The notes below the pieces were generated by a model. It searched no databases. It had not been told where the DNA came from and saw nothing but the letters and a program-made list of their open reading frames with translations. Made by a program: the position numbers and the translations under genes. Below are positions 1,870 to 60,346 of a stretch of 64,000 bases of DNA, one piece after another. The stretch is from Anaerolineae bacterium (GTDB lineage: Bacteria; Chloroflexota; Anaerolineae; B4-G1; DUEL01), in NCBI GenBank assembly GCA_049972045.1, contig JBMFKS010000003.1, positions 9,723 to 73,722 on the forward strand. Reading direction: 5' to 3'. Numbering within the stretch: the first letter of the stretch is position 1; the number at the start of each line of letters is the position of its first letter.

Positions 1870-4872
<3,003 letters not shown>

Positions 4873-10076: not shown

Positions 10077-12293
10077 ATGGAGTCATTCAAGCGGTCACTG
10101 GAAGAACTGTTTTCGGATTTCACCCCACCCGCTCCGGAGGGTATCTCCCCTGCTCCCCAGGAGGAAAAGCCACCGGCTCCCGCCCCGGCCCCGCGCCAGC
10201 CCACAGAGGCTGTGCTTTCCGGGAAGGAAATCGCCAGGCAGGTTGGACCGGGAGTCTCGCTGATAGGGGCCCATGTCCGCAATATTCGCGCGCAACTCTT
10301 GGGGAATACGTTGATCATTCTGGTTGTGATTCTCTGGACCGCTTTCCTGATCGGCAGCGCGATGGTGCGGTTGAACCGGGCGGTTGCGGCGGTGGGGGAG
10401 GAGACCACGCGGGCCAATACGGCGCTGGCGGCAGGAAAGGCGGCGGCGGAACTCTTCGTCGCTATCGGACAGGGAACGCTGGCCCAGGACCCAGAAGTGC
10501 TGATCCGGGGCATCACCGAAGCGCGCGAGCACCTCCTGCAGACGCAGGACCGCCTTCTGGAGAGCGTTGCCCCGATTCCGGTGGAAGACCCCCTGTGGTC
10601 GGAATTGATCCGTCTACGGGCCGCTATCTCCCAGATGGATTCCTGGACCACTTATTTCATAGAACAGGCCCGCCGGTACAACTGGGAAAACATTCGGGCT
10701 TCTCAATTGTATCTGGTTCCCTATTATCTGAACGAAATCACCGCAGCAACGGTAGGGGTGGAAAAACTGACCCAGGAGCGGCTGGCCCTTGCCAACCAGG
10801 AGGCAGCCGCAGCGCGGGAAATACTGCGCAACATCACGATATCCTGGGGCATTGTTCTGCTTCTGGTGGTCATAGGGGTAAACGTTGCTTTCCTGCGCAG
10901 TATCGCCGACCCGCTGGAACGGCTGGCCGAAGCATCCGCTCGCCTGGCGGCCGGCCGTCTGGAGACGCGCGTCGCCATAGACCGGGCCGATGAGTTCGGC
11001 CGCCTGGCTCAGGCCTTCAATGATATGGCTGAGCATTTGCAGACCCTTTACAACGAATTGGAAGAGCGGGTGCAGGAGCGGACCCGCGCCCTTCAGGAAG
11101 CCAACTATGCCCTCCAGCGACGGGCCATCCAGTTGGAGGCCAGCGCCGAAGTGAGCCGATCCATCATCTCTATTTTCAACGTGGACGAGCTGCTGTGGCG
11201 GGCCGTCAACCTGATTCGGGACCGCTTCGGCTTCTACCACGCTGGCATTTTCCTGATGGACGAGACGGGGGAATGGGCCGTGCTGCGGGAGGCCACGGGC
11301 GAGGCAGGTGCCCAGATGAAGGCCCAGGGCCACCGCCTCCCGGTGGGGGAGACCAGCATGGTCGGCTGGACGGCCCTCCACCGCCGCCCCCGCATCGCCC
11401 TGGACGTGGGCCAGGACGCGGTCCACTTTGCCAACCCTCTCCTGCCCTACACCCGTTCGGAGATGACCCTCCCTCTGATGGTCGGTGGTCGTCTCCTGGG
11501 GGTGCTGGACGTTCAGTCCACCGAAGAGGCCGCCTTTGATGAAGACGACATTCGGGCTCTCCAAAGCATGGCCGACCAGTTGGCCATTGCCATAGAGAAC
11601 GCCCGACGGCTTTCCGAAGAAGCCTTGCTGCTGGAAGCGACCAGCCCCATCTACCGCTTTAGCCGCCGGCTGGGCAGCGCGGCCACCGTGGAGGACATCG
11701 CGGAGGTCATCATTGGAACCGTCTCCGAGACCGAGGCGGATGGCTGCGTGGTGGTGGAGTTTGAGTCCTCCGACGGGGTACCGGAAGCCTTGCTCTACCG
11801 GGGGGTCTGGCGGCGGGACCGGGAGCCCACCTTCCGGCCCGGGATGCGGATGGAGGCATCCGAGACCCCTCTGCCCACTCTCATGCTGAGTCGGATGTGG
11901 GTCAGTGAGGATGCCCAGCGAGATTCCCAGATGTCGGATAAGGCCCGGGAACTCTTCCGCGCTACCGGTGTCGGGGCTGTCGTCAACATCCCGCTGCGGG
12001 TGGGGGAGCGGTCTGTGGGTCAGGTCGTCATCCTGCGGTCCACACCGGGCCCCTTCTCTCCGGCGTCGCTGCGACTCTATGAGGTCATCGGCGACCAGGC
12101 GGCCGTCGCGCTGGAGCGGGCCCGCCTGCTGGAAAGGATGCGGCAGCGAGCGGAGCAGGAGGAGGCTCTGCGGAGCATCGCCGACCAGATTACGGCCACT
12201 TTTGACCTGCGAACGGCCCTGCAGACGACGCTACAGCAACTGACCCAGGTGCTGGACGCCCGCGGTGGCTATGCGGAACTGGGAACCAGGTAG
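10077..12293 (+). CDS. Membrane sensor protein: TM-periplasmic domain-TM-HAMP-S-helix-GAF-GAF, no output domain
   Basis: There are two hydrophobic helices. A HAMP domain (LAEASARLAAGRLETRVAIDRADEFGRLAQAFNDMAEHL) is followed by ERTRALQEANYALQRRAIQLEASAE and two GAF-like domains. No HisKA/HATPase, GGDEF, EAL or HTH domain is present. Confidence 0.8.
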   Translation: MESFKRSLEELFSDFTPPAPEGISPAPQEEKPPAPAPAPRQPTEAVLSGKEIARQVGPGVSLIGAHVRNIRAQLLGNTLIILVVILWTAFLIGSAMVRLNRAVAAVGEETTRANTALAAGKAAAELFVAIGQGTLAQDPEVLIRGITEAREHLLQTQDRLLESVAPIPVEDPLWSELIRLRAAISQMDSWTTYFIEQARRYNWENIRASQLYLVPYYLNEITAATVGVEKLTQERLALANQEAAAAREILRNITISWGIVLLLVVIGVNVAFLRSIADPLERLAEASARLAAGRLETRVAIDRADEFGRLAQAFNDMAEHLQTLYNELEERVQERTRALQEANYALQRRAIQLEASAEVSRSIISIFNVDELLWRAVNLIRDRFGFYHAGIFLMDETGEWAVLREATGEAGAQMKAQGHRLPVGETSMVGWTALHRRPRIALDVGQDAVHFANPLLPYTRSEMTLPLMVGGRLLGVLDVQSTEEAAFDEDDIRALQSMADQLAIAIENARRLSEEALLLEATSPIYRFSRRLGSAATVEDIAEVIIGTVSETEADGCVVVEFESSDGVPEALLYRGVWRRDREPTFRPGMRMEASETPLPTLMLSRMWVSEDAQRDSQMSDKARELFRATGVGAVVNIPLRVGERSVGQVVILRSTPGPFSPASLRLYEVIGDQAAVALERARLLERMRQRAEQEEALRSIADQITATFDLRTALQTTLQQLTQVLDARGGYAELGTR

Positions 12294-27785: not shown

Positions 27786-28170
27786 GCTGTGCCCTTCAGT
27801 CCGAGGGGCTTCCCACGCCGAGGGCTTGCCCGAGCCCCTCGGGGCGAGCCCCTTCGGCCACGCCGCGGATTTAGCCTGCGGCTGCGGGGCTCGGCGCAAC
27901 GCTGGCGGCCTGTGCTACCTGTAGTGCAGGTGTCAACCGGCAGATACAGGCCCCCTCGCGGGGCCTTGGGCTGAGGGCCCCCTCGGCCACGCCGCGAGCG
28001 GCTCGCCGCGTGGCGGGCTGAGCCCTCGGGGCGAAGCCTTCGGCCCGAGGGCTCGGGGCTGGCCTGGCGGCCTGCGCGGCGCCGTAGCGCAGGCTGTTAG
28101 CCTGCATTTCGCAGACCTGACAGACCTGCGCTCCGCTTTGGCGGCGGCCTCGCCGCCGCCACGAGAAGTA
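27786..28170. repeat. Cluster of GC-rich palindromic intergenic elements (family B: gtagcgcaggctgttagcctgca... / caggccccctcgcggggcc... / ccctcggggcg hairpins)
   Basis: Near-identical blocks recur at 36893-37110, with partial copies at 1762-1790, 49680-49740, 50820-50900, 51945-52045 and 58615-58640. Confidence 0.8.
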
Positions 28171-34289: not shown

Positions 34290-34925
34290 TTCCGCCTCCA
34301 TCAGCGCACGCAGCGCATAGGTCACCCGCCGGGGCCGGGGAGTGAGGAGCCCCAGGGACTCCCACTCCTGGGCCAGTCGCTGCAGGCGGCGCAGGGAGAC
34401 CTGCCCCCGAAACGCCTCCCGCAGGCGAACCAGGTCAAACCGCCCGTCCAGGTGCTCCAGCGTGTACCGGACCAGTTCTCGCTCCAGCGGACTCAGGGTC
34501 GGGAAGGAGGCCGGCGGGCTGACCTGGGGGGCGATGGCGGATGCCTGGAGCATCTGCAGCCATTGGGCGGCCTCCGCAATCAGGTGGCCCATATTGAAGT
34601 AGAGCCGGTTCGCCCACTCGGCTACCCCCTGCAGGTCGTGAATGTACGGCGGGGAGGTGAGCAGAGTGCCGTAAGCCGCGAAGGGGAAGTCTGCCCGGTT
34701 GAATATTCCGGCCCGACCGTTGCTGGCCTGGGCGCGGATCACATCCCACCGCTCCTCGGTGACGGTGAAATCCAGCCAGAAGGTGACCAGAATGCCGCCC
34801 GCCAGTCGCCAGTACCAGGCCGCTCCCAGCCGGCCCACGTAACCGGGCACCCGCCGGGCGATTTCCTCAAAGATAACGTCCGCCAGCCGCAGGGCCTGAA
34901 AGGAAGGGTAGAATAGTGGGGACAT
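34287..34925 (-). CDS. Hypothetical protein (C-terminal region looks like a winged-helix-type domain)
   Basis: This 212-aa ORF has coding-like codon usage and no recognisable family. Its start abuts the heptamer array. Confidence 0.45.
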   Translation of the reverse strand: MSPLFYPSFQALRLADVIFEEIARRVPGYVGRLGAAWYWRLAGGILVTFWLDFTVTEERWDVIRAQASNGRAGIFNRADFPFAAYGTLLTSPPYIHDLQGVAEWANRLYFNMGHLIAEAAQWLQMLQASAIAPQVSPPASFPTLSPLERELVRYTLEHLDGRFDLVRLREAFRGQVSLRRLQRLAQEWESLGLLTPRPRRVTYALRALMEAE

Positions 34926-34933
34926 GGTTCACC

Positions 34934-35079
34934 GTCGCAGGTCGCAGGTCGCAGGTCGCAGGGCGCAGGTCGCAGGTCGCAGGTCGCAGGGCGCAGGTCG
35001 CAGGGCGCAAGTCGCAGGTCGCAGGTCGCAAGCAATCCGTCGTCTGTGGTCTGTGGTCTGTGGTCTGTCGTCCGTCGTC
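34934..35079. repeat. Heptanucleotide tandem arrays: (GTCGCAG/GGCGCAG) x ~14 then (GTCTGTG/GTCCGTC) x ~5
   Basis: It reads gtcgcaggtcgcaggtcgcagggcgcagg...gtctgtggtctgtggtctgtggtctgtcgtccgtcgtc. The unit length of 7 is non-coding periodicity. Confidence 0.9.
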
Positions 35080-36800
35080 TACCTCTGGAACTCCCGCGCC
35101 AGTTGAGCGGTGCTGATGTGGATCATCGTCGGGCGGCCGTGGGGGCAGGTGCGCGGGCTGGCACACCCCTCCAGCGCCCGCAGCAGTTCCTCCATCTCCT
35201 CCCGGGCCAGCACCTGCCCGGCTTTCATCGCCCCTTGTTTGCACACCTGCCGGATAATCGCTCGCTCTATCTCCTCCTCCGCTCCTCCGCTTTCCCGCCC
35301 CCCTGCTCCCGCGCCCTCCTCCGCCAGCCCCCGGGCGACCTCCATCAGCACCTCCCGGGGGTGCGCTGCGGTGAGCACGGCCGGCAGCGCCCGCACCAGA
35401 AAAGTGTTCCCCCCGAACGGTTCCACCTCCACCCCCAGGCGGCGCAGGGTCTCCTGGTGGGCCTCCACCAGTCCCGCCCACTCGGGCGGCAGGTCCACCG
35501 CCGCCGGCTCCAGCAGCGGCTGGGCCGGAATGCCGGTTGCCCGCTGGGCCATCAGTCGCTCGTAGAGCACCCGCTCGTGGGCTGCGTGCTGGTCTATCAG
35601 GTAGAGACCGTCCGGCCCTTCGGCGATGATATAGGTTGCTGCCACCTGCCCGACCACCCGGAGGGGCGGCAGTCCGCCGGGAAAGACCGGCGGCGAAATG
35701 ACCGGCATAGGGACGGGCCGGAACGGCTCGCTGGTCGGCCGCTCCGGGGGCCGGCCCTCCGGCGCGTGGGGGATAAGGGCCGGTCTGGGGATGACCCGCA
35801 TGGCCGGGATGCCGCCTTCCTCTGTTACTGCCCGCCGCACCGCCCGCTGCACGGCCCGGAAGGCCCCGTCCCCGTCCCGGAAGCGCACTTCCGCCTTGGC
35901 GGGATGGACGTTGACGTCTACGTCCTCCGGCGGGAGGGTGATGCTCACCACCGCCAGCGGATACCGTCCGGCGGGGAGGAGCGTGTGGTAGGCCTGGATG
36001 ATGGCGTAGGTCAGGCGCGCGTCCTGGACCCAGCGCCCGTTGACAAAAAGCGTGATTTCCCCCCGGTCGGCCCGGTGGAGGTGCGGCGGGCTGACGAACC
36101 CCGTCACCCGAATCGCCTCATCCTCCTCCGGCAGGACCTCCACCAGCGCACTTCCCACCTCCACGCCGTAGACCGCCACCAGCACATCCCGCATCTGCCC
36201 GGTGCCGGGCGACCGGAAGACCTCCCGCCCGTCGTGGGCCAGGGTGAAGCGCCGGTCAGGGTAGGCCATCGCGTAGCGGGTGACCCAGGCGTCTATGTGA
36301 TGGCGCTCGGTGGCCGAGGAGCGGAGGAACTTGCGGCGCGCGGGGACATTGTAGAAAATGTCTTCCACGGTGACCGTCGTCCCCGGCGGGCGGCCGACCG
36401 AGCGGCGGCTCACCACCTCCCCTCCCTCCAGCCGGATGAGGGTGCCGGTCTCCTCGCCCGCCGCGCGCGTGACGCAGGTCACCCGGCTGACGGCGGCGAT
36501 AGAGGCCAGCGCCTCGCCCCGGAAACCCAGGGTCCGGACCCGCGACAGGTCCTCCGCCGAGGCCAGTTTGCTGGTGGCGTGACGCCGGAAGGCCAGTTCC
36601 ACCTCCGCCGCGGGGATGCCGCAGCCGTCGTCGGCGACGCGCATCATGCGCTTTCCACCGTCGGCGACCTCCACGCGGATCTCCCGCGCGCCCGCGTCTA
36701 TGCTGTTCTCCACCAGTTCCTTGACCACCGACGCGGGCCGGCCCACCACCTCACCGGCGGCAATCTGGGCGATGATTTCGGGGGGAAGAACCCGGATCAT
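35079..36800 (-). CDS. mutL: DNA mismatch repair protein MutL
   Basis: The N-terminus is MIRVLPPEIIAQIAAGEVVGRPASVVKELVENSIDAGA, and the C-terminal motif is CPHGRPTMIHIS. The listed longer ORF (to 36842) only reads through the upstream heptamer array. Confidence 0.9.
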   Translation of the reverse strand: MIRVLPPEIIAQIAAGEVVGRPASVVKELVENSIDAGAREIRVEVADGGKRMMRVADDGCGIPAAEVELAFRRHATSKLASAEDLSRVRTLGFRGEALASIAAVSRVTCVTRAAGEETGTLIRLEGGEVVSRRSVGRPPGTTVTVEDIFYNVPARRKFLRSSATERHHIDAWVTRYAMAYPDRRFTLAHDGREVFRSPGTGQMRDVLVAVYGVEVGSALVEVLPEEDEAIRVTGFVSPPHLHRADRGEITLFVNGRWVQDARLTYAIIQAYHTLLPAGRYPLAVVSITLPPEDVDVNVHPAKAEVRFRDGDGAFRAVQRAVRRAVTEEGGIPAMRVIPRPALIPHAPEGRPPERPTSEPFRPVPMPVISPPVFPGGLPPLRVVGQVAATYIIAEGPDGLYLIDQHAAHERVLYERLMAQRATGIPAQPLLEPAAVDLPPEWAGLVEAHQETLRRLGVEVEPFGGNTFLVRALPAVLTAAHPREVLMEVARGLAEEGAGAGGRESGGAEEEIERAIIRQVCKQGAMKAGQVLAREEMEELLRALEGCASPRTCPHGRPTMIHISTAQLAREFQR

Positions 36801-36805
36801 GGTAC

Positions 36806-36864
36806 AGGTCGCAGGTCGCAAGTCGCAGGGCGCAGGGCGCAAGTCGCAGGGCGCAGGGCGCAGG
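36806..36864. repeat. Heptanucleotide tandem array (GTCGCAG/GGCGCAG x ~8), same orientation as the 34934 array
   Basis: The array ggtcgcaggtcgcaagtcgcagggcgcagggcgcaagtcgcagggcgcagggcgcagg sits immediately upstream of the mutL start. Confidence 0.9.
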
Positions 36865-36892
36865 AAAGGTGAACGCAGATAAACGCAAAAGG

Positions 36893-37110
36893 AATGTAGC
36901 GCAGGCTGTTAGCCTGCAAATACAGGCCCCCTCGCGGGGCCTTGGGCCGAGGGCCCCCTCGGCCACGCCGCGAGCGGCTCGCCGCGTGGCAGGCTGAGCC
37001 CCTCGGGGCGTGGCCCTCGGGGCGCAGCGGAGTGGCGCCGAAAGCGGCACTTCACTTTGTTCCGTGCCGCACTACAAGCAGCAGGCCTGGCGGCCTGCGC
37101 TCCGTTGTAA
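36893..37110. repeat. Family B GC-rich palindromic element cluster (second large copy)
   Basis: The ~90 bp from gtagcgcaggctgttagcctgca through ggctgagcccctcggggcg are near-identical to 28030-28110 and 27940-28040 in rearranged order. Confidence 0.8.
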
Positions 37111-40201: not shown

Positions 40202-41727
<1,526 letters not shown>

Positions 41728-42093
41728 AGAGGACCTCGCCGGATTCCCGCACCCGGCGGGCGAAAGGAAGATCGTCGGTCAGTTCCACCAGGTCTATCGG
41801 CTCGCCGCTGGCTTCCTCCAGCGCCCGCCAGAGGGCAAAGTAGTCCTCGGCGCTCAGTTTCCCCTCCACGGCGACGTCCACGTCCGATTGAGCCTCCATC
41901 TCTCCGGGGCGGGTAACCGAGCCAAAGAGGTAGGCCCGCCGGACGGCGGCAAAGCGTGGGAACACCCGGGGCGCCGCCTCCCGCAGGGCCCGAAGGGCTT
42001 TCTGCCGCCGGGCCTCGCGGGTCCGATATTCGGCTTCCCGCCGCCGCCGCAGGTTCTCCCGCGCGGCGGCGATCTCTTCGGGAGACCATGCCG

Positions 42094-42330
42094 TCATTCC
42101 CTGCGGTCCCTTCCGGCAGTCTGCAGTTCCCTGAAAGTCCTCTGCGCCAGCGTCACCGCCTCCTCCGCCATCGCCAGCGCATAAGAGGCATCCGCTTCGT
42201 CAAACAACTCCCATGGCGTCAACCCCGCGAATTCGTCGCCGTAATCGGTCTGGATATGGACATCAACCCGGAGCCGGTAGAGAGCAGGATCTGAACCTTT
42301 CACCGCGCCCCTTCCCCATCCAGCGACCAA
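42094..42330 (-). CDS. Small hypothetical protein (78 aa) upstream of the MNT/HEPN pair
   Basis: This is an ORF only; no motif was recognised. Its stop overlaps the NTase start as ATGA. Confidence 0.3.
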   Translation of the reverse strand: MVAGWGRGAVKGSDPALYRLRVDVHIQTDYGDEFAGLTPWELFDEADASYALAMAEEAVTLAQRTFRELQTAGRDRRE

Positions 42331-42798
42331 TCTGGCCTCGGGGTCGTTCCCAATTCCAGACCAGGTCCCGCCCCATCCGGACCCGCCGCAAACCTTGCTC
42401 CCGAATCAGGCGGCGCAGGCCGGCCAGTCGTTTCGCCATGGAATCTCGCGAATCGTACAGGATGACCCCGTCCAACGCCCCATCCAGAAACAGAGCGGGC
42501 AGGTAGTGGTTTGTCAACAGCACTTTTGTGGGTCTTTGCGCCCTCCCGTAGGGCAACTGCTCGCAGTTGCCCTACGGGAGTCCGGGCGAGAATCGCCACC
42601 CGCCCTCGCCACTCGGGCGGGAGTTATTGCTTCCAAAAAGAGATGCCGCTGAAACGGCTTCTGCGGTAAATACCGGGCAATCACCAGAAGGTCCCCATCG
42701 CTATCGGTATCTGCCTCGCCACGGGCTCGTGAACCGAAAAGAATGACCGCGATCAGGCGGTCGCCCAGCCCTTCCCGAAGAGCCTCCACCCCCGTCAT
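42263..42798 (-). pseudogene. Second nucleotidyltransferase gene split by insertion of a family C repeat element
   Basis: The N-terminal piece (42798-~42600) has ILFGSRARGEADTDSDGDLLV. Its reading frame then enters the repeat (..SCPTGGRKDPQKCC). The downstream piece (42556-42263) begins with the repeat-encoded MPYGRAQRPTKVLL and sits in a different frame. Confidence 0.5.
42508..42578 (-). mobile_element. Family C MITE-like element (cccgtagggcaactg..cagttgccctacgggagggcgcaaagacccacaaaagtgctgttgacaaacc), short copy
   Basis: It is the reverse complement of the elements at 50908-51032 and 52046-52177. It has an internal 12-bp inverted repeat and a terminal TTGACAAACC. Confidence 0.7.
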
Positions 42799-47186: not shown

Positions 47187-47188
47187 AC

Positions 47189-47227
47189 CCTGCGCCCTGC
47201 GACATGCGCCCTGCGACGTGCGACGTG
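47189..47227. repeat. Heptanucleotide tandem array (reverse-complement orientation: CCTGCGC/CTGCGAC)
   Basis: It reads ccctgcgccctgcgacatgcgccctgcgacgtgcgacgtg, directly after the rnj stop. Confidence 0.85.
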
Positions 47228-50659: not shown

Positions 50660-50907
50660 GAGTGACTCCACTGCAAAAAGGTCATTTTCCTGCAGAGGCC
50701 GCAGAGGACGCAGAGCAATGCTCATGAAAAACTTTGCGCTCTTTGCGTCCTTTGCGGTTAGTTTTTGCAGTAGACTCATGAGTCTCCCGCAAAAAACTCG
50801 CCGCAGAGGATAAAGTGCCTGGCGCGTTCAGCGCAGGTTGTTAGCCTGCACATACAAGACCTGACGGCCTGCGCTCCAGGGCTCAGATTGCCGATCTGAC
50901 CTACTTC

Positions 50908-51032
50908 AGTCAAGTTATACGTATGGGTCCGAATTGCCGACGCGGCGTAGGGCAACTGGGAACAGTTGCCCTACGGGCCGAATGGCCGACCTTGGAGGGC
51001 GCAAAGACCCGCAAAAGGGCTGTTGACAAACC
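50908..51032 (+). mobile_element. Family C MITE-like element, full-length copy
   Basis: It reads agtcaagttatacgtatgggtccgaattgccgac...gtagggcaactgggaacagttgccctac...gagggcgcaaagacccgcaaaagggctgttgacaaacc. It is ~85% identical to 52046-52177. Confidence 0.75.
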
Positions 51033-51131
51033 AGTAGGCTGGAGGGTAGCAATCGGCCGGACTTATTCTATCGCGGGCCCCGCTGCTGTCAATCCCCCCT
51101 GACCTGAAACCTTAAAATTTTCGCCCACCTA

Positions 51132-51182
51132 TTGACAACCGGCCGGTTCTGGTGTATAATGACTACTGGTCAGTATATGACC
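51132..51182 (+). promoter_or_regulatory. Consensus sigma-70 promoter (TTGACA-17-TATAAT) with overlapping TetR-type operator palindrome TGGTCA-N5-TGACC
   Basis: It reads aTTGACAaccggccggttctggtgTATAATgactacTGGTCAgtataTGACCca. It lies directly 5' of the TetR coding region. Confidence 0.6.
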
Positions 51183-51844
51183 CACAGTTAGTTGGGGGGA
51201 TTGCCGCGTTGACCACCCGAGCCCGGCGCGAGCGGGAGAAAGAGGAACGCCGCCAGTCCATCCTCCAGGCCGCGCGAGAGGTCTTCCTGGAGAAGGGCTT
51301 CTCCCGCGCCACGATGGACGATGTTGCTGAGCGCGCCGAGGTCAGCAAAGGCACCCTGTACCTGTATTTTGAGAGCAAGGAGACCCTCCTTGCTCATTTG
51401 CTTTTAGAAGGGCTGGATTCCCTCTACTCCTACCTGGAAGAGGCCTTCGCCCCCGACCGTCCCCTGAGCGCCGACGAACGCCTCCGGCGCATCGGCTGGG
51501 CCTACCTCCGGTTCTTCCAGGAAGAACCCCACTACTTCCGTTTCCTCATGGCCGTCAACGGCGAGCGATTCCGGGAGACGGTCACCCCCGAAATGTACCA
51601 GGAAGTTCTGGCGGCCAGCATGGAAGGGCTGAACCTGGTGGTTCAGGCGATAGAACAGGGCATTCAGGAGGGTTTATTCGCCTGCTGTGACGCTCGCCAG
51701 GCGGCAGCGACCCTCTGGGCCACCTTCAACGGCGTGCTGGAACTGATGAGCCATCCCCTGCGGCGGGATATGGTGGGCGTCAGCACCGATACGTTTTACC
51801 GGACCGCGCTGGAGACCGTGGTGCGGGGGATGCGCGCGTCGTGA
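51152..51844 (+). CDS. TetR/AcrR-family transcriptional regulator
   Basis: The HTH is ILQAAREVFLEKGFSRATMDDVAERAEVSKGTLYLYFESKE. The annotated ATG at 51152 lies inside the -10 hexamer. The real start is probably the in-frame TTG at 51209 or another downstream codon. Confidence 0.8.
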   Translation: MYNDYWSVYDPQLVGGIAALTTRARREREKEERRQSILQAAREVFLEKGFSRATMDDVAERAEVSKGTLYLYFESKETLLAHLLLEGLDSLYSYLEEAFAPDRPLSADERLRRIGWAYLRFFQEEPHYFRFLMAVNGERFRETVTPEMYQEVLAASMEGLNLVVQAIEQGIQEGLFACCDARQAAATLWATFNGVLELMSHPLRRDMVGVSTDTFYRTALETVVRGMRAS

Positions 51845-52045
51845 CCGGTAGCGGGTCGCCCATGGGAATGCAAGAGCGCCCGGACGTATTGCCGCTTAAC
51901 AAATGATTCGGGCAATCACCCGTTGGGTGGTTTTGCCCTCCTCATCCCCCCTGGCCGAGAAGGGGGAATCTTTTCCACCCCCTCCCCCTCGGGGCGTGGC
52001 CCTCGCCCGCCGCCGCAGGCCTCGGCCCGCCACGCCCTCGTGGTC

Positions 52046-52177
52046 AGTCAAGTTTGTACTTATGGGTCCGAATTGCCGACGGGGTCCGGGGCCCATGCAG
52101 GCCACAAGGCGTAGGGCAACGGCTCACAGTTGCCCTACTGGAGGGCGCAAAGACCCACAAAAGTGCTGTTACAAACC
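52046..52177 (+). mobile_element. Family C MITE-like element, third copy (terminal TTGACA degraded to TTACAA)
   Basis: It reads agtcaagtttgtacttatgggtccgaattgccgac...gtagggcaacggctcacagttgccctac..gagggcgcaaagacccacaaaagtgctgttacaaacc. It is preceded at 51945-52045 by family B hairpins. Confidence 0.75.
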
Positions 52178-52283
52178 ACTCGGGCCGCAGGCCCTTTGGC
52201 TGAGCGTCGGGCTGGGTATAACCAGATAGCAGGGCCCGGACACGGAACACGAAATACGCAATATTTACAAAAGGAGGTGCAGT

Positions 52284-53498: not shown

Positions 53499-53500
53499 AC

Positions 53501-53563
53501 AGACGACGGACGACAGACGACTGTGGTCCGTGGTCCGTCGTCCGTGGTCCGTGGTCCGTGGTC
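53501..53563. repeat. Heptanucleotide tandem array (GACGACG/GTCCGTG variants)
   Basis: The array cagacgacggacgacagacgactgtggtccgtggtccgtcgtccgtggtccgtggtccgtggtc fills the thiolase-hbd spacer. Confidence 0.85.
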
Positions 53564-53584
53564 AATCCTAACAGGAGGTGAAAG

Positions 53585-54911: not shown

Positions 54912-55712
54912 ATGGGCAACTGGCAGTACATCCGAACCGAAATTGAAGACCGCATCGCCACCCTTACCATTGACCACCCCCCCGTCAACTCCTTCAACCG
55001 GCAGGTGGTGACCGAACTGGAAGAGGCCATTGATGAACTGCTGGCCAACGACGAGGTGAAGGCCATTGTCATCACCGGCGGCGGGACCAATGCCTTCGTC
55101 GCCGGGGCCGACATCCCGGAGATCAAGAACTTGCTGGAGAACCCCGGCGAGAATTACGCCGCGTCCCGTGAGTTTATTGAGCGAGGCCAGCGGCTGTTCC
55201 TGAAGATTGAGCAGGCCACCAAGCCCATCATCGCCGCCATCAACGGCTTCTGCCTGGGCGGGGGTCTGGAACTGGCGATGGCCTGCCACATGCGGGTCTG
55301 CTCCGATCGGGCCCGCCTGGGCCAGCCGGAGATCAACCTGGGCATCATCCCCGGCTGGGGCGGCACCCAGCGGCTGCCCCGCATCGTCGGCAAGGGCAAG
55401 GCCATAGAACTCATCCTCACCGGCGACATGATCACCGCCCAGGAAGCCTACCGCCTCAACCTGGTCAACAAGGTTGTCCCGGCGGGCGCTGTCCTCAAGG
55501 AAGCCCGCGATCTGGCCCGCAAGATCGTCTCCAAGTCCAAATTCCCCATCGCCGCCGCGCTGCGCGCCATTGACCAGGGCCTGGCATTGCCCATTGAGGA
55601 GGGCCTGCGGGTGGAGGCGGAGCAGTTCGTCAGCCTGGCTGACACGGAGGACATCCGCGAGGGCATCAACGCCTTCCTGGAAAAGCGGCAGCCGCAGTTC
55701 AAGGACAGGTAA
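54912..55712 (+). CDS. Enoyl-CoA hydratase (crotonase family)
   Basis: [28 protein letters not shown]...[25 protein letters not shown] matches the crotonase family. The ATG at 54912 is preceded by GAGGAGG. Confidence 0.9.
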
Positions 55713-55740
55713 CGGGAGCAGGTCGCAGGTCGCACGGAGC
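55713..55740. repeat. Heptamer array (GCAGGTC x ~3), left flank of the four-helix-bundle gene
   Basis: It reads gagcaggtcgcaggtcgcacggagc. Confidence 0.8.
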
Positions 55741-55747
55741 GGGGAGG

Positions 55748-56134
55748 ATGTCGCAGAGCGGGAAGCCGAAGGGGTACGAGGAGACGGGAATCTGCCAGTT
55801 GGCTAAACAACTGGCGGTGGAAATCCACCGGATGACGCTGGAAGAACTGCCCAAATTTGAGATGTACGAAGAGGGTAGTCAGATTCGGCGGTCGTCCAAA
55901 TCCGTAGTGGCAAACTTCGTAGAAGCCTACGGGATGAAGCGCTACCCGGGCGACACAGTCCGTTACCTGACGTACTCCCTGGCTTCCTGCGACGAGACCA
56001 AATCGCACCTGGAAATGCTCTACGAGTCAGGTTCTCTGGCACCAGAGCGGTTTGAGTACTTCTACAATCAATACCGCAAACTGGGCGCTATGCTCTACAA
56101 CTACCGCGAAGCCGCTATCCAGGGCCGCGTGTAA
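55748..56134 (+). CDS. Four-helix-bundle protein (TIGR02436-type, 23S rRNA-intervening-sequence protein family)
   Basis: [62 protein letters not shown]...[11 protein letters not shown] shows the characteristic QxRRSxxSxxxNxxE pattern. It is inserted inside the beta-oxidation operon. Confidence 0.75.
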
Positions 56135-60132: not shown

Positions 60133-60346
60133 AACCACCAAGACACTTTGTTGAAACCACCAAGACACCAAGACACGAAGTATGAAAACTTTGTGTCTTC
60201 GTGTCTTTGTGGTGAAACCACCAAGACACCAAGACACGAAGTATAAAAACTTTGTGTCTTCGTGTCTTCGTGGTGAAACCGCCAAACCACCAAGACACGA
60301 AGTATAAAAACTTTGTGTCTTCGTGTCTTTGTGGTGAAACCACCAA
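60133..60346. repeat. Three tandem copies of a ~62-bp imperfect-palindromic, A/T-richer unit between etfB and etfA
   Basis: The unit gaaaccaccaagacaccaagacacgaagtat[g/a]aaaactttgtgtcttcgtgtctt[t/c]gtggt repeats three times. The left and right halves of each unit are near reverse complements. Confidence 0.85.

Follow-up and report, generated by a model that had tools for sequence, protein, structure and literature searches.

Several families of short bacterial repeats provide a reference for the element described in this study. The BOX elements of Streptococcus pneumoniae are modular boxA-boxB-boxC repeats, whose modules are not bounded by terminal inverted repeats (TIRs) with target duplications. 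The elements Correia, RUP and Nezha duplicate TA, and HUH transposition makes no target duplication. Described bacterial MITEs include Correia/NEMIS in Neisseria, RUP in Streptococcus pneumoniae, Nezha in cyanobacteria and ERIC/YPAL in enterobacteria (PMC3733652). The three related repeats that we have analysed in the genome of an Anaerolineae bacterium very probably constitute a family of MITEs, and thus non-coding derivatives of an insertion sequence (IS), a reading to which we assign a probability of about 0.8. The repeat family is real but ordinary in that it adds another MITE family and no new kind of system. Its MITE-like character, which had been proposed in an initial annotation of the locus, is reflected in the presence of TIRs, of directly repeated 4-bp flanks, of empty orthologous sites and of copies in other assemblies.

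All coordinates refer to positions in the analysed stretch of 64,000 nt (the window; Anaerolineae bacterium GCA_049972045.1, contig JBMFKS010000003.1, 9,723-73,722, forward), unless another locus is named. The window contains three copies, termed A (50905-51033, plus strand, 129 nt; nhmmer E=6e-41), B (52041-52178, plus strand, 138 nt; nhmmer E=1.6e-42) and C (42507-42576, minus strand). The three blocks of shared sequence that had initially been described were all recovered at their places. These are the 31-nt right arm GGAGGGCGCAAAGACCCRCAAAAGKGCTGTT at 42516-42546 (minus), 50994-51024 (plus) and 52140-52170 (plus), with 0 occurrences expected from 100 shuffles, the palindrome GTAGGGCAAC-N8-GTTGCCCTAC at 42548-42575, 50947-50974 and 52111-52138, with 0.01 expected by chance, and the 20-nt left arm TATGGGTCCGAATTGCCGAC, which was found at 50922 and 52061 and hence only in both plus-strand copies. 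While the places of the copies stand, their ends lie further out than initially assigned. An nhmmer profile of five copies found no extra copy in the window, where no further match to the TIRs was detected either.

The organization of the family is most completely represented in a 168-nt copy found on a different contig (copy D, L011:4193-4360, minus strand), which corresponds to the full-length form and combines all modules of the window copies. Copy A consists of left TIR, left arm, hairpin, the GGCCGAATGGCCGACCTTG module and right TIR and is devoid of the middle module of B and D, and its altered left terminus (T--TCAGTCAAG) leaves its tip 2 nt shorter. Copy B contains both TIRs, the left arm, the middle module and the hairpin without the 19-nt module that follows the hairpin, and the truncated copy C comprises hairpin and right TIR only, without left arm. 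When judged from the shared modules, these differences resemble deletions from a master form of 168 nt, and the elements may decay by internal deletion, with A presumably having lost the middle, B the post-hairpin module and C the whole left half. The element broadly measures 130-170 bp, and a relative detected in L005 measures 229 nt. Coding capacity is absent, as six-frame translations are repeat-derived, stop-containing or unconserved between copies, and the indels between copies are not multiples of three. The ends of open reading frames to which attention had initially been drawn (..SCPTGGRKDPQKCC, MPYGRAQRPTKVLL, MPYWRAQRPTKVLL) do exist as mechanical ORFs, but they are mere translations of repeat DNA.

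The elements are bounded by imperfect TIRs of about 28 nt with the consensus ends 5'-TGGTYWGTCAA...TTGACAAACCA-3'. In copy D, the left (TGGTCAGTCAAGTTTATACTTATGGGTC) and the right TIR (GACCCACAAAAGTGCTGTTGACAAACCA) agree at 18 of 28 positions in an end-anchored comparison, a value that is reached in 2 of 20000 shuffles when 16 offsets are allowed. A gapped local alignment of the TIRs with harsh mismatch scoring is not significant, and the TIR identity of the Anaerolineae copies is only ~64%. The motif TTGACA, which had initially been considered terminal, is present in the element end but is in fact subterminal, located 5 nt from the right end inside the right TIR, and it reads TT-ACA in copy B. 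Outside of the termini, the 4-bp flanks are identical at one register (TGGT...ACCA) in three independent elements, with CTCG on both sides of copy B (52037-52040 and 52179-52182), GTAG on both sides of copy D and ATAG on both sides of the L005 element, for which the naive chance is (1/256)^3. A 2-bp duplication of TA of the IS630 type, which was the first idea, was rejected since the bases beside TA/TC also match in the three complete elements, thus extending the duplication to 4 bp. Similarly, a conserved cleavage tetranucleotide of the IS200/IS605 type was discarded, as the right tetranucleotide varies together with the left flank. Target duplication is found in all complete copies save A, whose flanks CTAC (50901-50904) and GTAG (51034-51037) are unmatched as a direct repeat. 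In its vicinity, the left side of copy A abuts ~250 nt that are missing from the related locus L015, and this junction is thus rearranged. The right flank is GTAG in both A and L004, and it is CTAC in the truncated copy C, where the same tetranucleotide is found in the empty site of L009. Small size without coding capacity, TIRs, target duplication and presence or absence at sites with empty counterparts, which together characterize MITEs, are all found in this family, of which three copies reside in 64 kb.

Scans of genome and metagenome collections, which used the right-arm pattern, located the family beyond the window. In species-representative genomes, one true extra copy was found, located at the very beginning of a 1.6-kb contig (L004) from an Anaerolineae MAG, and three other matches were dismissed as chance, of which one is located in undefined context and two in apparent coding sequence that was read by eye and that we take to be trpF-like. 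The only true match in the metagenome scan resides on an unrelated low-GC contig (L005), where it occupies 229 nt of the minus strand (531->303), with termini TGGTTTGTCAGG...GGTTGACAAACCA (given at greater length as TGGTTTGTCAGGTTTGTTTTTGTGGTC ... GACCCACAAAAGCACGGTTGACAAACCA) that match as TIRs at ~21/27 positions, the first 10 nt being identical, and with an unrelated interior. The combination of the same termini with an unrelated interior implies that the family is defined by its ends, as expected of transposase-binding sites. When six-frame translations of the element were compared to a protein database, the only match was P0121, annotated as 'NapC/NirT cytochrome c', in which translated repeat forms the C-terminal tail and whose contig L011 carries copy D. 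Scans of viral contigs and a blastn search of plasmids gave no match, and an autonomous IS or a transposase bounded by the same ends was encountered neither in the window, the fetched loci, the viral contigs and the plasmids nor next to any copy.

Among related assemblies, L010 shares 99.84% identity with the window and contains the same three copies. Decayed copies were found at L011:5006-5042, where the stem contains a compensatory change (GCAGGG..CCCTGC, L011:5011-5038), and at L007:8488-8586 upstream of a CofD-like gene. About six distinct insertion sites were seen among the window, the collection matches and the fetched loci. In light of the copies and decayed copies distributed across relatives, the family is older than the split of these lineages, which are ~90% identical, and further insertions have followed it. 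Contigs L004 and L018 start inside a copy and three further MAG contigs (P0242-P0244) end inside copy D, with assembly breaks within copies found in at least five assemblies.

The interaction of the family with a host gene is illustrated by copy C, which is located in a gene coding for an MNT-like nucleotidyltransferase (NTase; 42263..42798, minus strand) with a GS...DxD motif (PF01909/PF18765) and an ortholog of 153 aa. The remnant of its HEPN partner (PF05168) is found at 42094..42330 on the same strand, with an ortholog of 112 aa in L009, and an intact Polbeta-NTase/HepT-like pair (41245-42097) is located directly downstream of both. A search with the two NTase fragments joined identified intact 153-aa homologs (P0001-P0003, 75-81% identity) and, as P0008, the 94-aa NTase fragment itself, which is annotated in an NCBI MAG. 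The loci L007 and L009, which share ~90% DNA identity with the window, contain in synteny a CofD-like gene, the intact NTase and then GAPDH and PGK. Copy C is missing at the syntenic sites of L007, L008 and L009 (~90% identity), where the NTase is intact and where CTAC or ATAC is found at the junction. In the DNA alignment, 69 nt (TAGGGCAAC...AAACCAC; 42506-42574) are found in place of the 14 nt AGGAGTTTGAGGC(A/C) of the orthologs, resulting in a net change of +55 nt and a frame shift. The right junction reads ...AAACCA/CTAC/CTGCCC, compared to GGC/CTAC/CTGCCC at the empty site of L009, with CTAC corresponding to 42503-42506 in minus-strand reading. The initial claim that a copy splits the NTase gene is thus correct in that the orthologs are intact, but what is found is a truncated fragment in exchange for 14 nt instead of a clean insertion.

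A similar refinement concerns the change in reading frame, which had been placed exactly at the element and which does occur there, but also ~60 nt upstream, where an extra G at ~42633 already shifts the frame. This insertion is one of three other lesions in the NTase, the remaining two being an 18-nt deletion near the start and the loss of 1 nt at ~42343, and in the HEPN remnant ~130-140 nt of the 5' part are deleted between GGGTT(T)G repeats. Intact ORFs of NTase and HEPN in relatives (153 aa and 112 aa) are thus opposed by a pair with four NTase lesions and a HEPN 5' deletion in the window. In view of the three further lesions and the truncated HEPN, the element is one lesion in a decaying pseudogene pair, and its insertion was not necessarily the inactivating event. 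Since copy C is a replacement, its history requires a second event. In the simplest case, the element would have landed at CTAC in the NTase gene of the pair, and a later deletion, presumably between CG dinucleotides, would have removed its left half, one CTAC and 13-14 nt of the gene.

Copies A and B are located upstream of genes for a TetR protein and a thiolase, with their TTGACA end facing both, as initially noted. At this locus, TetR orthologs share 84-93% identity and the five fetched TetR-thiolase loci (L012-L017) are all without A and B. The spacer between the two genes spans 440 nt in the window compared to 66-244 nt in the loci of relatives, whose spacers are unalignable and in L012-L014 filled by arrays of the heptamer CACTTGC. 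From the start codon of a CinA-like gene to the renewed onset of similarity to L015, the distance is ~390 nt in the window but 37 in L015, the former consisting of copy A and ~250 nt of other repeat-rich sequence, and to the right of copy A GTAG-GCTGG aligns to GTAT-GCCCTG of L015. With the spacers of relatives being diverged or rearranged, no base-precise empty site was obtainable for A or B.

The arrangement of these copies had led to the proposal that the element would provide a portable -35 box, which is not sustained by our analysis. In our scans, no -10 was found at 16-18 nt from any TTGACA of the element, including those at 51024 and 42516, copy B has lost the G of the motif and TetR is equipped with its own promoter (51132-51160, plus strand; TTGACA-17-TATAAT, 12/12), which is located outside the element and followed by the palindrome GGTCAGTATATGACC. 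Promoter and trailing palindrome are almost invariant in all relatives, which are without copy A, and the only other sigma-70-like site in the region is divergent (51092->51065, minus strand). A junction promoter, in which the -35 of the right end would be combined with a -10 of the left end in a circle, was rejected with a hand-estimated spacing of at least 19 nt. In the MITE reading, the motif would belong to the end that is bound by the transposase, and any promoter effect would be incidental.

In each copy of the window, the center is occupied by a hairpin (50946..50975 in A, 52110..52138 in B and 42547..42576 in C). It is headed by GTAG and in A contains a 13-bp stem and the loop GGAA, in B one G.A mismatch adjoins the loop and in C the 4-nt loop is reverse-complemented in L010 (CGAG vs CTCG). 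The same GTAG-headed hairpin, CGTAGGGCAACTG-N4-CAGTTGCCCTACG, is shared by all Anaerolineae copies, with a perfect 13-bp stem as rule, and neither in the window nor in 18 loci was it found without the arms. A run of T following the hairpin is absent in either orientation, and it is thus not a canonical terminator.

These properties bear on other conceivable readings of the family, two of which assign a function to the element in the host. Its predicted folds are more stable than shuffles, with z between -2.3 and -4.5 over all copies (-4.1 in A, -4.1 in D and -4.5 in C), as would be expected if the family encoded a small structured RNA that is transcribed from or through the element. The excess stability, however, can be traced to the perfect 13-bp hairpin and to base pairing between both ends, as any MITE would show, and an RNA gene appears exceedingly improbable for a repeat that gains or loses whole modules between copies, has copies in either orientation, within a pseudogene as well as under the 3' end of an annotated gene, and is framed by neither promoter nor terminator. 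In line with these features, Rfam 15 shows no gathering-score match anywhere in the window and none over any copy at E<=1. A role as domesticated regulatory cassette would mean that TetR and thiolase are driven or modulated by the outward-facing TTGACA, either alone or together with the hairpin in the capacity of operator or terminator. Such a role receives support from the location and orientation of A and B and from the fact that A is placed between the conserved divergent promoter and the CinA-like gene and is probably part of the leader transcript. It is nevertheless a very improbable reading, since the element lacks a suitably spaced -10, with TT-ACA in B, and its hairpin lacks a T-tract, since the perfect promoter of TetR is conserved in relatives that run the same operon without the element, and since the gene that harbors C is a pseudogene and D is oriented antisense to a gene called on the opposite strand, into whose annotated 3' end it points.

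Two further readings concern the mode of mobilization and both appear unlikely. In a repeat of the REP/REPIN type, the GTAG palindrome would be the active part, mobilized as single-stranded DNA by a RAYT, an IS200/IS605-like HUH tyrosine transposase cleaving at GTAG, with the arms as passengers or as a 'TIR' version. The GTAG-headed hairpin with a stem of 12-13 bp and variable 4-nt loops, the compensatory change in the decayed L011 copy and flanks that often read GTAG/CTAC are in accordance with such a mechanism, as is a second family of small GTAG-adjacent palindromes in the window, and the flip of the loop between assemblies indicates that the hairpin behaves as hairpin in DNA. There is also precedent in the literature, which describes GTAG repeats whose stems measure 12-13 bp, REPs of the GTAG type in Chloroflexi and RAYT genes flanked by TIRs (PMC3733652). 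In contrast, the hairpin is never found alone but always within the arms, the L005 relative has kept the termini and not the hairpin, the flank varies (CTCG, ATAG, GTAG) and yet is the same on both sides, as in a target duplication, and no RAYT gene adjoins any copy, all of which leaves this reading improbable. The same low likelihood applies to a hybrid between a TIR transposon and a REP, where a GTAG hairpin inside TIRs would be inserted at GTAG-like sites by a TIR-associated HUH transposase instead of a DDE enzyme. Such a mechanism would involve extrusion of the hairpin in vivo, at which the loop flip hints, and, if correct, would connect the biology of REPs with that of MITEs in Chloroflexota.

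In the preferred reading of the family as MITEs, a transposase that is encoded elsewhere would bind the ~28-nt ends and integrate the element through cuts staggered by 4 bp, preferably at NTAG/CTAC. The 168-nt form is arranged as 4-bp duplication, left TIR, spacer, hairpin, short module, right TIR and the same duplication. The transposase is probably a DDE enzyme, and 5'-TG...CA-3' termini in conjunction with a 4-bp duplication would suit an IS3-like parent. The family may currently be active or may have been so in the past. Observations that count against this reading are the lack of an autonomous IS or transposase with matching ends in the searched material, the low number of about six insertion sites, the TIR identity of only ~64% with its non-significant gapped alignment, the missing clean empty sites of A and B, the unmatched flanks of A, the replacement of 14 by 69 nt in C and the GTAG-headed hairpin, which together with the GTAG-like target recalls REP/RAYT biology.

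The description of the element is mainly of practical value and has consequences for the interpretation of public data. It explains the contig breaks of these Anaerolineae MAGs at these points and it accounts for the annotations of a 94-aa 'nucleotidyltransferase' and of a NapC/NirT cytochrome c that ends in a nonsense tail, which both originate from genes that run into the repeat. It also identifies the NTase-HEPN module of the window as a pseudogene pair, and the insertion sites serve as markers that separate closely related populations. The family could ultimately point the way to the parent IS and to its host range, since a relative with the same ends resides in an unrelated low-GC genome.

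Collectively, these results define the relationship of the family to known systems. The interrupted host module, as distinct from the element, resembles the toxin-antitoxin-like MNT/HEPN pairs, where an NTase with a GS...DxD motif is followed by a small HEPN gene, but the pair of the window carries two frameshifts and two deletions in addition to a MITE fragment. With BOX, the family shares modules (left arm, middle, hairpin, post-hairpin and right arm) that are present or absent between copies; unlike in BOX, these modules sit between TIRs and their differences have the appearance of deletions from the master form. With REPs, which are RAYT-mobilized 20-40-bp palindromes headed by GTAG, and with REPINs, it has in common the GTAG-headed palindrome, a stem of 12-13 bp as in the 'GTAG-24' class (PMC3733652), variable loops, a compensatory change and the possibility of an intragenic location. 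It differs from both in that the hairpin is embedded in ~28-nt TIRs and never forms the repeat unit itself, in the 4-bp duplications and in the absence of an adjoining RAYT gene. From the bacterial MITEs listed above, the family is set apart by the lack of any sequence similarity found, by a 4-bp duplication at NTAG-like sites, by the GTAG-headed central hairpin of 13 bp and by its host, an uncultured Anaerolineae/Thermoflexales-like lineage of Chloroflexota. In its general features, it nevertheless resembles these MITEs, being a non-coding element of 70-300 bp with TIRs of 15-30 bp and short target duplications, which is mostly intergenic and occasionally intragenic, can be folded as a whole into a long hairpin, occurs in variants with internal deletions and differs in its presence between close relatives.

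The truncated copy C (42507-42576, minus strand) of the MITE, which resides in the nucleotidyltransferase (NTase) pseudogene of a decayed NTase-HEPN pair, carries a hairpin whose 4-nt loop, located at 42559-42564 in the window and at 10235-10240 in the closely related assembly L010, is exactly reverse-complemented between the two. Read with the right arm downstream, the loop is CGAG in the window and CTCG in L010, whereas both assemblies are elsewhere 99.84% identical. The difference looks like a polymorphism resulting from hairpin-mediated loop inversion, and the palindrome would thus behave as a hairpin in DNA. Immediately downstream of the decayed pair, a second and apparently intact pair is found on the minus strand (41245-42097), where the gene of a Polbeta-type NTase of 135 aa overlaps with that of a HepT-like protein of 160 aa (PF20797, E=4e-28).

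A gene call affected by the repeat is encountered in L011, the contig carrying the full-length 168-nt copy D. The protein annotated there as 'NapC/NirT cytochrome c' (3250-4341, 363 aa) reaches into copy D with its C-terminal third, which is rich in Arg and Pro and nonsense-looking; a frameshift or an over-extended reading frame probably underlies this call. The gene also appears in three other MAGs, where it is 'partial' since the contig stops within the repeat.

At the TetR-thiolase locus, window 51132-51190 contains a perfect TTGACA-17-TATAAT promoter followed by the palindrome GGTCAGTATATGACC. Since both are almost unchanged in six relatives, this region is probably the autoregulatory operator of TetR. 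A divergent promoter (11/12) is located at 51092->51065. The approximately 250 nt between the start codon of the CinA-like gene and copy A (50660-50904) are missing in L015, the closest relative having this spacer. This segment includes a self-complementary part (50748-50810) and one palindrome AGCGCAGGCTGTTAGCCTGCA (50830-50850), and its first 120 nt are similar to positions 23-140 of the syntenic relative L007 (75%). It probably represents one or more additional small insertions, which would make the spacer an insertion hot spot.

Heptamer tandem repeats form intergenic arrays of the CAGGTCG/CAGGGCG and GTGGTCC types at 34910-35067, 36784-36892, 47188-47227, 55712-55778 and ~53500-53580, with GTGGTCC found near 53.5 kb. 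The orthologous TetR-thiolase spacer of the relatives L012-L014 holds other heptamer arrays (CACTTGC), whose length is unequal among the three. At 60149-60346, a 61-nt unit is repeated in three tandem copies of 93-100% identity, each with an internal inverted repeat ACCAAGACACGAAG...CTTCGTGTCTTTGT. Very large ORFs of up to 2011 aa (~7000-34000) contain numerous diverged internal repeats of 230-300 nt, assigned to families D1-D13 in a repeat scan, which are putative protein-domain repeats and not mobile DNA.

The palindrome AGCGCAGGCTGTTAGCCTGCA defines a second small repeat family, with three window copies (28086-28106, 36898-36918 and 50830-50850) at 0-1 mismatch compared to 0 expected by chance, and no copy in the examined loci of relatives. 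In two copies it is directly preceded by GT, resulting in a GTAG head, and the family is REP-like.
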